Virus record (IMG/VR): IMGVR_UViG_2609459852_000006
Length of the DNA stretch: 7,115 nucleotides
Strand: one strand, 5' to 3'
DNA from: a virus
Lineage: Duplodnaviria; Heunggongvirae; Uroviricota; Caudoviricetes
This document shows, one piece after another, positions 1-7,115 of the stretch (the stretch's first letter is position 1; each line of letters begins with the position of its first letter). The position numbers and the translations under genes were made by a program. A model generated the notes under the pieces. That model was not told the DNA's origin. It saw nothing but the letters and a program-made list of their open reading frames with translations, and did no database searches.

Positions 1-265
1 CAGAAATAAATAACGCGTCGCCGGAAGCCACGTCATAAACCGTTTTACCCCGATGATCTTCAACGAGATGCCACGATGCCTCATCACTGTTGAAAACAGC
101 CACGAAGCCTGCCGGAATATCTGGCGGTGCAATATCGATACTGTTTGCTGGCAGACCTGTATGAGGCGGAATATATGCGTCACCTTCACCAATAAATTCA
201 TTAGTTCCGGCCAGCAGATTATAAATTTTTATGGTCCGTGGTTGTTCACTCATTCTGAATGCCAT
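1..265 (-). CDS. tfa: Tail fibre assembly protein (lambda Tfa-like chaperone), N-terminal 88 codons only; CDS continues past the low-coordinate edge of the window
   Basis: Manual reverse-complement translation from the ATG at 265..263 gives [88 protein letters not shown]..., which matches lambda Tfa as I recall it. No stop before position 1, so it is absent from the ORF track. The start ATG overlaps the stf stop (TAATG). An alternative in-frame ATG lies at 253..251 (MSEQ...). Confidence 0.9.
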
Positions 266-3200
266 TATGCAAGCCTCACAATATAGTTAAATGCGATGTT
301 TTTGACGGTGTTTTCCGCGTTACCAGCAGCGTTAACGGTGATGGTGTGTCCATGTGAACCAATCGCAACGGAGTGCGTATGAGCACCAATACCGACAGTA
401 TGCGCGTGTGCACCTGCAGATGCTGCTGTGCCGGACAGTGAGTGGCTATGATTACCATCTGTACTGGTATTAGCTAACCACCCCGTAGACATACCTACTG
501 AGCCTTGTACACCCCAGGTATTTTGACCTGAGCTTGTATAACCATATTGATAAGTATCTTTAAAAACACTGGGGTTAAATCGACGGCCATCTCTATGGCT
601 GTGATTACCAGCTGCATTCGTGCTGCCACTTAAACTATGGGTATGCGCACCAGTGTTATTCGTGGATTTAGTGCCGTAATCAAACGACGATGTGGTTTTC
701 GTCCCCAAATCCGTACTGGATGCGCTGGCGCTGTGGGTATGCGATTTAATGCCGTCCTGTTCCTGAGACAATACGGCCCGACCACTGGTAGGTTTGCCCT
801 TAATCGTCCAGCCACGCATATCAGGGATCACGCCTGACGGATAAGCCGCTGCAAGTTTCGGGTATGCAGATTTGTCAAAAGTCTGCCCCTGCATCAGGGC
901 ATAGCCAGACGGAACGGTATCTGATGGCCACGGGATTGGTGCGCCAGGCGGATAAAACTGCTCTGATGGCGTATAGAGTGAATAAACTGTACCGTCCGTT
1001 AACCCTTCCGGCTTATTAGCAGAATATGCTGGTGACGTATGAATCGTCACGCTGGCATTACTGGTATAATCCCATTGAATATTTACACCAGTCGCATAAT
1101 TTCCGATTGCAACGTAAATATCGTAAGTATCACCAGATGTATTGACCCAGGCAAAATTTGTAAACCCTGTCGATGTGCGCTGCCATAAAGCACCAGTAAT
1201 CCCCTTCGGATTACCATTACCTGCACGTAAAACAAGTTCAGATATACCTGCCTGTTGAGGTGACCCCACGTTAAATCCAGCGCCACCAATCAACGTAATT
1301 GAAACAACAGAACTCGCCTGTGGCATGGTTACCGTTGCTAATTTGAACCAACCAGCACCACCGCTGAATGACATTGTTGTTGAGTTAAGCGTACCAATAT
1401 CTTTCGGCGTCAGTGTTATATCCGCTGAAAGCGCCTTACCATTCACCTTACGGGCAGAAGGTACCCGACCATTCGCATTGTCATTAGCTGCTTTCACTGC
1501 TTTCGGTGTCGCAGCAAGCGTTTCAGATGTGCTGTTGGTTGCACTACTGAGCTGGACAATTCCTTTTTGTGCTGTCGTAGCGTCCTGTGCGGTGTATTTC
1601 CCGTTAGCCAGGTCATACGCGGCCTTAACGGCTTTTGGCGTTGCCGCCTGTGACTCGGAAGTGCTGTTAGTCGCACTGCTGAGCTGAACTATCCCTTTCT
1701 GTGCTGTCGTTGCATCCTGTGCGGTGTATTTCCCGTTAGCCAGGTCATACGCGGCCTTAACGGCTTTTGGCGTTGCCGCCTGTGACTCGGAAGTGCTGTT
1801 AGTCGCACTGCTGAGCTGAACTATCCCTTTCTGTGCTGTCGTTGCATCCTGTGCGGTGTATTTCCCGTTAGCCAGGTCATACGCGGCCTTAACGGCTTTT
1901 GGCGTTGCCGCCTGTGACTCGGAAGTGCTGTTAGTCGCACTGCTGAGCTGAACTATCCCTTTCTGTGCTGTCGTTGCATCCTGTGCGGTGTATTTCCCGT
2001 TAGCCAGGTCATACGCGGCCTTAACGGCTTTTGGCGTTGCCGCCTGTGACTCGGAAGTGCTGTTGGTCGCACTGCTGAGCTGTACTATCCCCTTTTTCGT
2101 CGTGCTCGCATCCTCAAGCGCCACGGCGGATGCAATATCCTCTGCCCGTTTTGCTGCTGTCTCGGCGCGCGTTGCCGCGGATTCCGCCGTACTTTTGCTC
2201 TGTGCTGCCGCTGCCGCACTGCCAGCAGCCTCTGTCGCCTTCGTGGATGCCGTCGTGGCGCTGCCCCTCGCTGCTGACGCCTGTCTGGTCGCCTCATCTT
2301 TTGAAGCAGACGCAGATGATGCCGATGACGCCGCCGAACTGGCGGACGATGCGGCAGCCGTTTTTGAGGATTCTGCGCTGGTTTCCGACGCTTTCGCGTT
2401 CGTTTCGGATGTCTTCGCTGCGGAAGCAGACCTCGCTGCTGCGCTGGCCTGTTCAGTGGCTTCGCCAGCCTTCGTTGTGGCTGTTGAAGCGGATGATGCG
2501 GCGCTTTCTGCCGATTTTCCGGCGGCGGTGGCACTGACTGCTGCCTCCTCTGCCTTAATGGACGCCTCACGGGCCGATGATGCAGCTGCTGTCTCAGAGT
2601 CTGCCGCAGCTGAGGCGCTCTGTTCCGCTGCCGTTTCAGAAGACCTGGCATTCGTCTCGGACGTTTTTGCCGCCTTCACGGAATTTCCTGCCGCCGTTGC
2701 CGAGGAGGCTGCACTGCTGGCGCTTGTGGAGGCGTTCGTTTCTGATGATTTTGCCGCCTCTTTGGAGGCCGCCGCATCTCTGGCTGAAGTGGCGGCTTCT
2801 GACGCTTTCGTCGTCGCAGTGGATGCAGAAGTGGCTGCTGATTTTTGTGACGCTGCAGCATTCGTTTCTGACGTTTTCGCCGCACCGGCACTGGTGGCCG
2901 CCGCGCTTTTTGAGGACTCTGCAGCGGCAGCACTTTTTGATGCTTCAGTGGCCTTTGTTGATGCCGTTCCTGCGCTGGAAGACGCCTCCTGAGCCGAAGT
3001 CGCGGCCTGTCCGGCTGACGTGCTGGCTGCACGCGCTGAGCCTGCAGCATCAGTCGCATGGGTTGCCGCCTCACGGGCAGATGTGCCGGCATCACTGGCT
3101 GACTTCTTCGCGGCTGCCGTGTTCTGTGCCACCGCGGACGCGTTACGCGTCACCTCTTCCACCATCAGTTCAAAACGGCGCAGAGCCTCCGGACGGGCAT

Positions 3201-3489
3201 CATCCTCCGTCATGGCACCGAGAAAATCATTCAGCGTACCGGGTCGGGAATCTTCATACACGGTGATGGTCCCGGCATGTGACGGCGGGAATCCTTCCAC
3301 CAACAGAATAACGCTGTACTGACCGTACTCAACGTCCATGCTGTAACGCCCGGCTTCATCCGGATTTTCTGAGGCCAGCGTGTTCACCACCACCGTGGTG
3401 CTGTTACGTTTTGCTTTCAGCTGGATTGTGCAGTTCTGTACCGGTTTTCCTGTGCCGTCTTTCAGTACACCTGAAATCTTTACTGCCAT
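265..3489 (-). CDS. stf: Side tail fibre protein (lambda Stf-like), intact 1074-aa single ORF; N-terminal tail-attachment domain, Ala/Ser/Thr-rich shaft, five tail-fibre repeats, divergent central segment, conserved HxH-rich C-terminal tip
   Basis: ORF track 265..3495 (-). The track's first codon is GTG at 3495..3493; the conserved start [26 protein letters not shown]... is the ATG at 3489..3487, preceded by GTGGGGTGAAT. The C-terminus ...[29 protein letters not shown] matches the lambda Stf C-terminus from memory. Stop TAA at 267..265. Confidence 0.95.
1480..2094 (-). repeat. In-frame tandem repeat inside stf: four near-identical 132-bp units (1567..1698, 1699..1830, 1831..1962, 1963..2094) plus a degenerate partial fifth unit (~1480..1566); each unit encodes a 44-aa tail-fibre repeat
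   Basis: The string gtgcggtgtattt recurs at 1587, 1719, 1851 and 1983, an exact 132-bp period. The two central units are identical by eye and the outer two differ at a few, apparently synonymous, positions. The protein shows [44 protein letters not shown] four times, then [29 protein letters not shown]. Confidence 0.9.
2095..3150 (-). other. Ala/Ser/Thr-rich low-complexity shaft region of Stf (approx. residues 115-465), GC-rich and internally degenerate-repetitive ([24 protein letters not shown] motifs recur)
   Basis: Translation is dominated by A, S, T, E and K with recurring short motifs. The same DNA yields several long spurious ORFs in other frames and on the plus strand (1988..2992, 2085..2651, 2130..2537, 2577..3266, 2676..3095), typical of GC-rich GCN-codon tracts. 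Confidence 0.8.
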
Positions 3490-3492
3490 ATT

Positions 3493-3498
3493 CACCCC
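3493..3498 (-). promoter_or_regulatory. Probable Shine-Dalgarno element for stf (minus strand GTGGGGTGAAT-ATG)
   Basis: G-rich purine tract 3-5 nt upstream of the ATG at 3489 on the minus strand; imperfect match to AGGAGG. Confidence 0.45.
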
Positions 3499-3500
3499 AC

Positions 3501-3527
3501 AAAAAAGCCCGCCTGAACCGGCGGGCT
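3501..3527 (-). terminator. Rho-independent terminator between lom and stf (minus-strand orientation)
   Basis: GC-rich inverted repeat agcccgcc (3506..3513) / ggcgggct (3520..3527) with 6-nt loop tgaacc. On the minus strand the stem is followed directly by TTTTTT (plus-strand A-run 3501..3506). Lies 26 nt downstream of the lom stop. Confidence 0.7.
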
Positions 3528-3553: not shown

Positions 3554-4153
3554 TCAGAACTTATAACCGACACCCACGATGAAACCGTCAGTGCGCCAGT
3601 CGCCACTGCCGGAGCCTTCATAAGCAATATCAATGGCCACGGATTCGGTCGGGTTAAACTGCACGCCAGCTCCCCACGCCAGAGACGTGTTGCTGTGGCG
3701 ACCGTCATCACTTCCGGTCAGCACGTCGTGCGTTTTCCCCTTGTTGTCAGTTACGCGGAGATAATCCCCGGAGAAAGTCGACACACGGCTGTAAGCCACA
3801 CCCGCCATCGCATACGCGCTGAACCATTCATTCACGCGCACAGACGGCCCCGCCATTACGCTGAACCAGCGGTTACGAACGGAATCTTCATGCCAGCGAG
3901 TATCGCTGTAATGGGTCAGCTGGCGATTCTTGTCTCCTGCATAGCTGAATGACGTCACCAGCCCCAGCGTATCCGTAAACTCATAACGGTATTTCACGTT
4001 AATCCCGTTCAGATCATCACTGCCGGGAACGTTGGTCCGGGCATGAAGATACCCCGCGCTCAGCGTGGACTGATGTTCAGACGCCCATGCAGGCGCACCG
4101 GATACGGCCAGACAAATGGCTGCGGACAAAATGGCGGCACAAACTTTACGCAT
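3554..4153 (-). CDS. lom: Outer-membrane beta-barrel protein Lom (Ail/Lom/PagC/OmpX family), 199 aa with N-terminal signal peptide; lysogenic-conversion (moron-type) gene
   Basis: ORF track 3554..4153 (-): MRKVCAAILSAAICLAVSGAPAWA|SEHQSTLSAGYLHA...GFIVGVGYKF. It has a signal peptide with an AxA cleavage motif and a C-terminal aromatic residue (F) typical of OMP beta-signals, and is near-identical to lambda Lom as I recall it. RBS GAGAGG 5 nt upstream of the ATG. Confidence 0.95.
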   Translation of the reverse strand: MRKVCAAILSAAICLAVSGAPAWASEHQSTLSAGYLHARTNVPGSDDLNGINVKYRYEFTDTLGLVTSFSYAGDKNRQLTHYSDTRWHEDSVRNRWFSVMAGPSVRVNEWFSAYAMAGVAYSRVSTFSGDYLRVTDNKGKTHDVLTGSDDGRHSNTSLAWGAGVQFNPTESVAIDIAYEGSGSGDWRTDGFIVGVGYKF

Positions 4154-4174: not shown

Positions 4175-4201
4175 AATAAAAAAGGCGTCATTCCTGACGC
4201 C
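4175..4201 (-). terminator. Rho-independent terminator immediately downstream of J (minus-strand orientation; position corresponds to the terminator after J in lambda)
   Basis: Inverted repeat ggcgtca (4184..4190) / tgacgcc (4195..4201) with loop ttcc. On the minus strand it reads GGCGTCAggaaTGACGCC followed by TTTTTTATT (plus-strand A-run 4178..4183). Lies 23 nt downstream of the J stop (4226..4224). Confidence 0.65.
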
Positions 4202-4223: not shown

Positions 4224-7115
4224 TCAACGAATACTGATGCCGGAAGCCGCTTTTTTGGTCACAATCACCGTACAGTCGGTGATATTGCCTGCCCCCTGAT
4301 TGCCTTTCTGGAAAATCTTAAACTCCAGAGTGACGCTACCACCACCACTAGGCATATCAATAACTGCACTGTAACTACCGGGAATGGCCCCTTTAGTTTC
4401 TCTGGATGCGATTAATACGCCGTTTTTGCGAACTTCAAAACCATAACCCGTGTATCGCGTGCCTCCCGGGTTATTTCCGCTCCCCGGATCGTCATACGCT
4501 ATACCGTTAAAAATAATGGGCGGAATAATAATCTGGCGGTCAAAGTTATGATCATCGCTGATGGTGACTGTAACCGTACCGTTTGGTGTTTCCGTGTTAC
4601 CCCACGTACCGACTTTTTTCGGGAAGGCTTTTGATACAGCTTTAACGAAATCCCCTCTGACCTGGGTCGCCTCCAGCATGCCCTTAATCGTACAGTTTTC
4701 ATTTACCGTGACATTGTTGAGCGTTCCTGAGTTCGCATTCACACTACCACTGATATCCGCATTTTTAGCGGTCAGCTTTCCGTCTGATGTCAGGGAAAAT
4801 ACCGGAGGACTGCCACCGCTGGTAATGGTGGGGGCTGTCAGGCGCTTCAGGAACACGTCGTTCATGAATATCTGGTTGCCCTGCGCCACAAACATCGGCG
4901 TTTCATTCCCGTTTGCCGGGTCAATAAACGCGATACGATTGGCGGCAACCAGAAACTGGCTCAGCTTGCCTTCCTCCGTGTCCTCCATGCTGAGGCCAAT
5001 ACCCGCGACATAATGTTTGCCGTCTTTGGTCTGCTCAATTTTGACGCCCCACATAGCATTCCATTTATCGTTAGCGTCCTTCCACTCTTTCGAAAACTCA
5101 TCCAGTCTGCTGGCGTTATCCTCCGTCAGGTCGACTTTTTCCAGCAGCTCTTTACCGAGATGGGATTCGGTTATCTTGCCTTTGAAAAAATCCAGGTAAC
5201 CTTCCGCATCATCGCTCGCCCGACCGACGGCCTCCACGAATGCCGATTTGCCAACGGTGTTCACACTGCGGATATAAAAGTAATAATCATGGCCCGGTTT
5301 GATATTGATACTGGCGGCTATCCAGTACAGCCCCGTGCCAAGGTAGCGGGCTGTGGTTTCAACCTGCCTGATATCGGTAATCCGCGTTTCCGAGAACCAG
5401 AACTCAAACTGTACCGTCGGATCATAAACCGCAAGATGCGGCGTGGCGGTTATCTGAAAATAGCCCGGCGTCAGCTCAATCCGCGACGGCGCTGCCGGGG
5501 CGGCAATCCGGAACGATACCGACGCCGGATCGCCCTGCTGTCCCCGGGCATTTACCGCCCGGACCGTCAGCGTGTAACGCCCCAGCGCCAGTTGCCTGAA
5601 GCGGTAAGTGGTTTCCGTCGTCCGGGCCGTGCTGACCAGCCGCTCACTGCCGTCATCGGCGGCCACGGTCAGGCGAAGCATAAAGCTCACGCCCTTCACC
5701 ACCTTCGGCGTATCCCAGCGCGCCAGCACCTGGTATTCCCCGCTGTCTGCGGTGACTTCGGCGGTCAGGTGCTGCACCGCTGGCGGCGTGACACCATTCA
5801 CCGTGCCGCTCTGGTCGCCGTCAAAGTGCGCCCCGTTATCCACGATGGCTTCTTTTTCCGGTACATGCTGCACGGCGGTGATGGCATACGTGCCGTCGTC
5901 GTTCTCACGGATACTCACGCAGCGGAACAGGCGCTGGCGCAGCGTCGGCAGCTTCAGCCCCCACACGCTGTATTCAGCAACGCCGTCAGGAACACGGCTC
6001 ACTTTCACCTTCACGCCGTCGGTGACGGACTGAACCTCCACGCTGACCGGATTGCCACTTCCGTCAACCAGGCTTATCAGCGTGGTACCGGAGGATGGCA
6101 GCGTGATTTCACGGTCGAGCGTCAGCGTCCGGGTCTGGCTGTTTACCGCCAGCACGCGACCACCGGTGCTGATACCGGCATAGTCATCATCGCAGATTTC
6201 AATGACATCGCCCGGTACATGGCGAAGCCCTTCAGCACCCACGCTGAAGTCCACGGTCTGCGTTTCCAGCAGTTCCGTTTTAATCAGCCACAGCCCGGCG
6301 CGGTGCGCCTGCCCCCGGCTGGTACAGCCAAAGGCATCCATCTTCGTGACGTTACGACCGTAACGGGCAATGGCCTGCGTATCTTCAACAAGCTCTGTCG
6401 CCGTCTCCCAGCCGTTATCCGGGTCAATCCAGTTCACCTCAACGGCATTATGGCGGTCCTTCAGGGCGCTGAAACTGTAGCGGAACGGCGCGCCATCATC
6501 CGGCATCACCACATTACTGCGGTTATAGGTCCACACCTTATCTGATGGTCGGTCCTGCACGAACGTCAGCGTCTGCCCGTTCCATACCGGCATACAGCGC
6601 ATCGCCGAGCAGAAATCACTGAGCACATCCCACGCCTTACGCTGTGTGGTCAGGTAGGCATTACAGGTGATGCGCGGCTCCGTGCCGCCAAAACCGTCCG
6701 GCACTGACTGGTCGCAGTACTGGCCGATGACATACAGCGCCCATTTATCCACATCCGCCGCACCAAGACGTTTCCCCATGCCGTAGCGCGGGTGGGTCAG
6801 CATATCCCACAGACACCAGGCCATGTTGTTGCTGTATGCCGGTTTAAACGTTCCGTCCCAGATACCGCTGTATTGCCGCGTCTGCGGGTTATAATTCGAC
6901 GGCACCTGCAGAATGCGCCCGCGCAGATGATAATTACGGCTCACCTGCTGGCTGCCGAACTGCTCCGAATCCACCTGCACGCCGACCAGTGCCGTGTTCG
7001 GGTAGCCCTGTTTCACATCGATGATTTCGGTGTATGACGACCAGAGCGTTTTGTTCTGCAGCTGGTCTGTGGTGCTGTCCGGCGTCATCCTGCGCATCCG
7101 GATATTAAACGGGCG
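4224..7115 (-). CDS. J: Tail tip host-specificity protein J (lambda gpJ-like central tail fibre), C-terminal 963 codons; N-terminus lies beyond the high-coordinate edge of the window
   Basis: The ORF track shows 4224..7097 (-) starting at an internal Met, but the frame stays open to the window edge (7115..7098 reads RPFNIR before [30 protein letters not shown]...). Long stretches such as [33 protein letters not shown] and [40 protein letters not shown] match lambda J from memory. Stop TGA at 4226..4224. Confidence 0.95.

Follow-up and report, generated by a model that had tools for sequence, protein, structure and literature searches.

The side tail fibre gene (stf) examined here ends in a stretch crowded with His-x-His (HxH) motifs, which raises the question of whether the tip of its product is, as an original prediction made from the letters alone had proposed, a metal-stabilised receptor-binding needle of the kind found at the tip of the T4 long tail fibre protein gp37, folded with the help of the downstream Tfa chaperone. 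The window, by which we mean the whole stretch of DNA analysed (7,115 nt), holds four genes, all on the minus strand and in the lambda order J, lom, stf and tfa, with the following features:

4224–7097, minus strand: J, with Pfam tip attachment protein J domains; its true N-terminus lies beyond the end of the window
3554–4153, minus strand: lom (Pfam Ail_Lom, E 2e-123)
265–3495, minus strand: stf, side tail fibre gene, the ORF as listed (GTG at 3495, 1076 aa; stop TAA at 265–267)
Stf aa 3–136, minus strand: phage_tail_N (PF08400), the prophage tail-fibre N-terminal domain (Pfam, E 3.6e-71)
within Stf, minus strand: five Phage_fiber_2 repeats (Pfam, E 5.7e-89)
1–265, minus strand: 5′ part of tfa (first 88 codons), which runs off the window; its ATG (263–265) overlaps the stf stop

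Stf residues are numbered here on the 1076-aa ORF from GTG 3495; the true start is probably ATG 3489 (1074 aa), which would make all residue numbers 2 lower, because an RBS-like GGGGTG precedes that ATG and the protein would then begin with MAVKISG, as in lambda and the EC93 RefSeq entry. With its N-terminal prophage tail-fibre domain and its position after J and lom, stf is of the lambda type. A scan of the whole window against Rfam returned no RNA family.

Genomically, E. coli chromosomal prophages match the window over its whole length at 99.6–99.8% nucleotide identity. In the nearest genome, E. coli EC93, the element occupies the Qin locus, adjoining ydfJ, ydfK, pinQ and tfaQ, and its Stf is 100% identical to ours save for the number of copies of a 44-aa repeat (3 versus 5 in the window). 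Stf proteins of this kind in E. coli prophages go by the name stfR or by ‘prophage tail fiber N-terminal domain-containing protein’. Ur-lambda (orf-401 + orf-314) has the same J-lom-stf-tfa order and the same N-terminal domain, with a tip that is 71% identical and a Tfa that is 98.9% identical, but its Stf differs from the one described here in head sequence and central shaft. Lambda Stf carries a single fibre repeat of the type present five times in the Stf of the window.

One alternative is that stf is left over, unexpressed, from a defective prophage, in which case the motifs have been kept by descent and have no current function here. Qin, where the EC93 element lies, is a cryptic-prophage locus, and even laboratory lambda carries a frameshifted stf (orf-401/orf-314). 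Against such a relic, the 1076-codon stf ORF is intact and free of frameshifts, J and lom are likewise intact, EC93 has a complete complement of tail genes upstream, several genomes encode an identical Stf protein, and the tip is shared by active phages, mEp460_ev081 among them. The prophage may be cryptic in this genome, yet we regard a functionless stf as unlikely.

Returning to a working fibre, translation of the stf ORF gives exactly seven HxH motifs, all of them in the last 158 residues of the protein (window 346–741), which agrees with the seven originally reported for the last ~160 residues, the first motif standing 158 residues before the C-terminus:

733–741, minus strand: SHTHS (Stf aa 919–921)
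637–645, minus strand: first AHTHS (aa 951–953)
595–603, minus strand: NHSHR (aa 965–967)
442–450, minus strand: NHSHS (aa 1016–1018)
400–408, minus strand: AHAHT (aa 1030–1032)
373–381, minus strand: second AHTHS (aa 1039–1041)
346–354, minus strand: SHGHT (aa 1048–1050)

The span first flagged for these motifs (268–745) corresponds to Stf aa 917–1076, and the Gly/Ser/Thr setting ascribed to them holds as well, the C-terminal 160 residues being rich in Ser, Thr, Gly and Ala. Together, the motifs hold 14 of the 17 histidines of the entire Stf protein. When the last 160 residues of Stf were shuffled 100,000 times, the shuffled sequences contained a mean of 1.13 and a maximum of 6 HxH motifs, and none contained seven; the seven-motif pattern is thus far beyond chance. 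Overlapping out-of-frame and antisense ORFs in 268–837 were unsupported and were taken as spurious.

Structurally, a phmmer search with Stf residues 766–1076 against all PDB chains returned the T4 gp37 tip (2XGF chain A) as the best match (E = 4.5e-86), spanning Stf 834–1076 and gp37 799–1026 (query 69–311, chain 15–242); the sole other PDB match was a Sf14-type short tail fibre (9CUY), at the collar region. Identities amount to 159 of 228 aligned positions (69.7%) in the phmmer alignment, and the alignment to gp37 divides the tip as follows:

268–996, minus strand: homologue of the gp37 receptor-binding tip, comprising collar, needle and head (Stf aa 834–1076; phmmer/2XGF and tblastn)
802–945, minus strand: collar domain (aa 851–898; Pfam PF07484, E 6.8e-12, 45.6 bits against a cut-off of 24)
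595–801, minus strand: outgoing needle half, with HxH motifs 1–3 and TDLGTK/FDYGTK repeats (aa 899–967; alignment to gp37)
463–594, minus strand: distal head, a divergent segment presumed to contact the receptor (aa 968–1011; alignment to gp37)
268–462, minus strand: returning needle half, with HxH motifs 4–7 and the conserved C-terminus (aa 1012–1076; alignment to gp37)

As in gp37-type tips, the Pfam collar domain stands N-terminal of the needle. The likeness to gp37 is unevenly distributed along the tip: it is strongest over the collar and outgoing needle (Stf 847–967 versus gp37 812–931, 99 of 120 residues identical, 83%), nearly as strong over the returning needle (Stf 1012–1076 versus gp37 962–1026, 50/65, 77%), and falls away in the head (Stf 968–1011 versus gp37 932–961), in which 6 of 30 residues are identical and Stf is 14 residues longer (44 versus 30). 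The histidines pair one to one. On the outgoing side, Stf H919/921, H951/953 and H965/967 align with gp37 H883/885, H915/917 and H929/931, and on the returning side Stf H1016/1018, H1030/1032, H1039/1041 and H1048/1050 align with gp37 H966/968, H980/982, H989/991 and H998/1000. Every His of either chain falls in a column where both chains have His, and these 14 are the only histidines in the aligned part of gp37. Gaps between successive motifs are 32, 14, 51, 14, 9 and 9 residues in Stf against 32, 14, 37, 14, 9 and 9 in T4, the gap across the head alone being different, which suggests that the two scaffolds would be superimposable save for that one segment. The proposed T4-gp37-like needle is therefore borne out as strong homology with all 14 histidines in equivalent places, the comparison being one of aligned sequence against a solved structure; histidines in non-equivalent positions, or a tip lacking similarity to the needle, were not what the alignment returned.

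Beyond the alignment, T4 gp37 and Stf share the collar-needle-head order, seven HxH motifs, an identical C-terminal sequence and a gp38/Tfa-type gene directly downstream. They differ in what lies N-terminal of the tip, which in Stf is carried on a siphophage shaft (phage_tail_N, an Ala/Ser-rich region and Phage_fiber_2 repeats) and not on a gp37 shaft. Two further analyses did not enter the classification of the tip. Pfam PF03335 (Phage_fiber, a 14-residue repeat) scored 19.1 bits against a cut-off of 20, below its gathering threshold, and its sole stretch (Stf aa 946–959, around the second HxH) was marginal and was set aside. A single-sequence AlphaFold2 model of the 243-aa tip as a monomer, a form that cannot represent an intertwined trimer, had a pLDDT of 37 and a pTM of 0.13 and was discarded as unusable.

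The literature on the homologous tips gives these pairings a structural meaning. The gp37 needle holds seven iron atoms along its length, coordinated by paired histidines (PMC6957217), with octahedral geometry at the HxH pairs of 2XGF according to the summary given in PMC11705849, so that the iron initially ascribed to the HxH motifs of T4 accords with both sources. With six ligands at each of seven sites, shared among three chains, every chain must supply 14 His, which is the number counted in the aligned part of gp37 and in Stf. The sites also matter to the phage, since replacing either H929 or H931 of gp37 with Ala abolishes plaque formation, both being essential (PMC6957217). For lambda, the HxH motifs have been reported as conserved (PMC11705849), and Stf 578–774 has been modelled on 2XGF as a collar, a six-stranded needle and an OmpC-binding domain (PMC7291167). 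The homology between the lambda Stf and T4 gp37 tips and the HxH-iron sites are thus already published, and the HxH feature is not new; such a tip is an ordinary, previously described trait of lambda-type fibres in E. coli prophages.

Taken together, we consider it very probable that the Stf C-terminus is a gp37-like receptor-binding tip (785–1026 in 2XGF) of an E. coli lambdoid prophage, forming a trimeric needle with seven metals and assembled with the assistance of Tfa. We infer the trimer geometry, metal identity, chaperone dependence and receptor role of Stf from its homologues. By analogy with gp37, three Stf chains would intertwine, each running through the collar, down a thin beta-strand needle to the head, and back up to the C-terminus. 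Each chain would supply one HxH pair at every one of seven levels on the threefold axis, such that six imidazoles per level would hold one metal octahedrally, presumably iron as in T4, and the seven metal sites would act as rivets of the needle. Receptor specificity would be set by the divergent head (aa 968–1011), and the coupled downstream Tfa, a gp38 homologue, would probably be needed to start Stf trimerisation at the C-terminus.

As for the metal, the needle fold could be the same and yet hold zinc or nickel in place of iron, or a metal that varies with growth conditions. The identity of a metal is not readable from sequence, and the Stf collar region also matches the short tail fibre structure 9CUY. 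Zinc-binding phage fibres do exist, as exemplified by the T4 gp12 short fibre, whose His-lined axis binds zinc. The ligand set of Stf, however, with six His per site and seven sites, equals that of the iron-holding gp37 sites residue by residue, and we consider a metal other than iron to be quite improbable.

Should the needle hold iron, the ions might do more than rivet it, and a ‘Ferrojan horse’ role has been published for HxH-bearing fibres, in which iron held by the fibre acts as a lure for host receptors of siderophores or iron uptake (PMC11705849). By homology with gp37, though, the ions of Stf would lie along the core of the needle. In the paper describing the 2XGF structure the iron ions are reportedly buried in the needle. 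The receptors reported for the T4 and Ur-lambda tips are, moreover, OmpC and LPS (PMC6957217, PMC7291167), and nothing within the window points to siderophore receptors, all of which makes an iron bait in Stf highly doubtful.

Turning to the chaperone, the stop of stf and the start of tfa overlap in TAATG (263–267), which suggests translational coupling. By direct alignment, Tfa over its 88 residues in the window shares 98.9% identity with lambda Tfa and only 35.5% with T4 gp38 (76 residues aligned); the matching genomes annotate tfa as tfaQ or tail fiber assembly protein, and the 88-aa fragment gave no match in Pfam. A gene for a gp38/Tfa-family chaperone hence lies directly downstream of stf, as judged from an 88-aa fragment cut by the window edge. 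The same arrangement recurs in other phages: a ‘T4- and lambda-based’ family of receptor-binding proteins spans more than 200 phages, all of which have a gp38-like chaperone alongside, and the same source, citing Montag 1989, has lambda Tfa able to replace gp38 (PMC9659904), while assembly of the Stf trimer is aided by Tfa (PMC7291167). Against the products of T4 genes 37 and 38, identity is thus ~70% for the Stf tip (gp37) and the lower value given above for Tfa (gp38).

Evolutionarily, the tip is widespread. A tblastn search with the 243-aa tip matched 636 of 50,697 phage records, 331 of them with at least 80% coverage, with identities of 95.8% in mEp460_ev081, 76% in ev099, 71% in lambda and 65% in T4, and with further relatives in other T4-like myophages (Straboviridae), Nonagvirus, Peduoviridae and Felixounavirus. 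When 12 diverse tips covering lambda, T4 and those same groups are aligned, 10 of the 14 His columns are invariant; the remaining four, which belong to the motifs flanking the head, lack His only in the short, headless tips of SEN4 and Yersinia phage 636. Scanning IMG/VR yielded at least 588 relatives, and among the matches listed the identical 243-aa tip (100%) occurs in many prophage contigs, while 35 distinct close variants conserve all 14 His at 100%. Variation among these 35 variants concentrates at aa 954–1013 and upstream of the collar, the head being the most variable block. The idea that the HxH pattern simply reflects low-complexity Ser/Thr/Gly/Ala/His repeats and lacks any specific structural function can be dismissed as next to impossible, for in spite of the biased composition and the internal repeats (GIGAHTHS/IGSHGHT and TDLGTK/FDYGTK), the shuffled sequences never reached seven motifs, the match to 2XGF is a strong one to an ordered, solved structure, and the histidines are conserved in distant homologues while the residues adjoining them vary.

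Phage mEp460_ev081 also delimits the unit that is exchanged. Its nucleotide identity to the window is 99.1% and unbroken over positions 1–959, and then ends; a single mosaic module hence carries the Tfa N-terminus, head, needle and collar together, and this alignment places its boundary where the collar begins (Stf aa ~846, near window 959). The Stf of this phage accordingly has the same head as ours and differs upstream of the collar. For annotation and engineering, the value of the locus lies in this delimited module (window ~1–959, consisting of the collar, seven-site needle, head and cognate Tfa N-terminus), which is exchanged between phages; such tip modules serve to redirect delivery vectors when grafted onto lambda particles (PMC11338833).

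What is mildly new concerns the length of the needle and the receptor of the head. Lambda Stf has eight HxH motifs, with one more SFDYGTK repeat and one more GAHxH unit, and hence a longer needle than the seven-motif Stf of the window. The needle seems to be made of paired length modules, in which one outgoing FDYGTK unit would be matched with one returning GAHxH unit and would thus supply one metal site; if this is true, insertions or deletions occurring in pairs would account for tips with 5, 7, 8 or 9 metal sites.

The head is a divergent segment of variable length that sits, in the alignments, between the needle strands and opposite gp37 932–961. In gp37, I933 to about S958 form the tip subdomain, in which receptor-contacting residues have been mapped by mutagenesis (PMC6957217), and given the divergence of the Stf head its receptor contacts probably differ from those of T4. 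Divergence from T4 in the head is also what is expected of a receptor-contacting part. We posit, as a plausible if tentative reading, that the head (aa 968–1011, window 463–594) is a distinct and common specificity cassette, possibly for a receptor other than OmpC or LPS, set on a T4-length needle with seven metals and matched length modules. Knowing the receptor of such a very common head variant would help predict the host range of the prophages that carry it. Of 5426 complete E. coli genomes, 1142 contain the head DNA (window 440–610) with an identity of at least 95%; the gene is annotated as stfR in some of these and as a prophage tail fibre protein in most.

Comparison of tail fibre tips in the 12-tip alignment (window 268..996 aligned with the tips from L001-L011) revealed that additional HxH motifs come with additional units on both strands of the needle. 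The five tips that contain 8-9 HxH motifs (lambda, VR25, JenK1, CkP1 and REP12) all carry an additional SFDYGTK repeat in the outgoing strand, together with at least one additional GAHxH unit in the returning strand, and the two tips with 5 HxH motifs lack the head as well as both head-flanking HxH motifs. From the alignment, needle length thus looks modular. At the base of the tip, the near-identity (99.1%) to the closest phage, mEp460_ev081, covers tfa and the Stf tip and ends where the collar domain begins, and matches to other phages break at window 945 or 952. Window ~945..959 is a mosaic recombination junction. Directly past tfa, the closest genome (E. coli EC93) and the closest phage both encode a serine recombinase, in each case outside the window:

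L012 (EC93) 2002..2592, serine recombinase pinQ
L003 (mEp460_ev081) 4396..4986, Ser recombinase

Gin/Cin/Pin invertases are switches of tail-fibre tips, and the position of these genes beside tfa is reminiscent of them.

Length variation also extended to the Stf shaft, where TRF detected five tandem repeats of 132 bp (44 aa) each (window 1529..2091), corresponding to Phage_fiber_2 repeats:

Stf aa 468, 512, 556, 600 and 644, starts of the Phage_fiber_2 protein repeats

The EC93 Stf has three 44-aa repeats, whereas five are present here, and the rest of the protein is 100% identical; this difference in repeat number explains why the genome matches differ in length by 264 bp. The repeat number in Stf is a copy-number polymorphism, which would alter fibre length. 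Between Stf aa ~121 and ~460 (window ~2115..3135), the shaft is rich in Ala, Ser and Thr (38% Ala, 22% Ser). This segment gives rise to extended open frames, both antisense to stf and in alternative frames, such as:

1988..2992, plus strand, open frame of 334 aa
2085..2651, minus strand, open frame of 188 aa

As genes, these are almost certainly spurious.

At the other end of the fibre gene, the stf ORF is listed from GTG 3495, with an alternative ATG at 3489 preceded by GGGGTG. Because the ATG start agrees with the lambda Stf N-terminus (MAVKISG) and with how RefSeq annotates the identical protein of EC93, the true Stf is probably 1074 aa long. Upstream, two terminator-like hairpins flank lom on both sides:

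3506..3527, minus strand, GC hairpin with T-run, just after lom
4184..4201, minus strand, GC hairpin with T-run, just after J

Since these hairpins bracket lom, and the post-lom one ends only a few bases ahead of the stf ribosome-binding site, their arrangement suggests that lom is an insert with its own, separate transcription.
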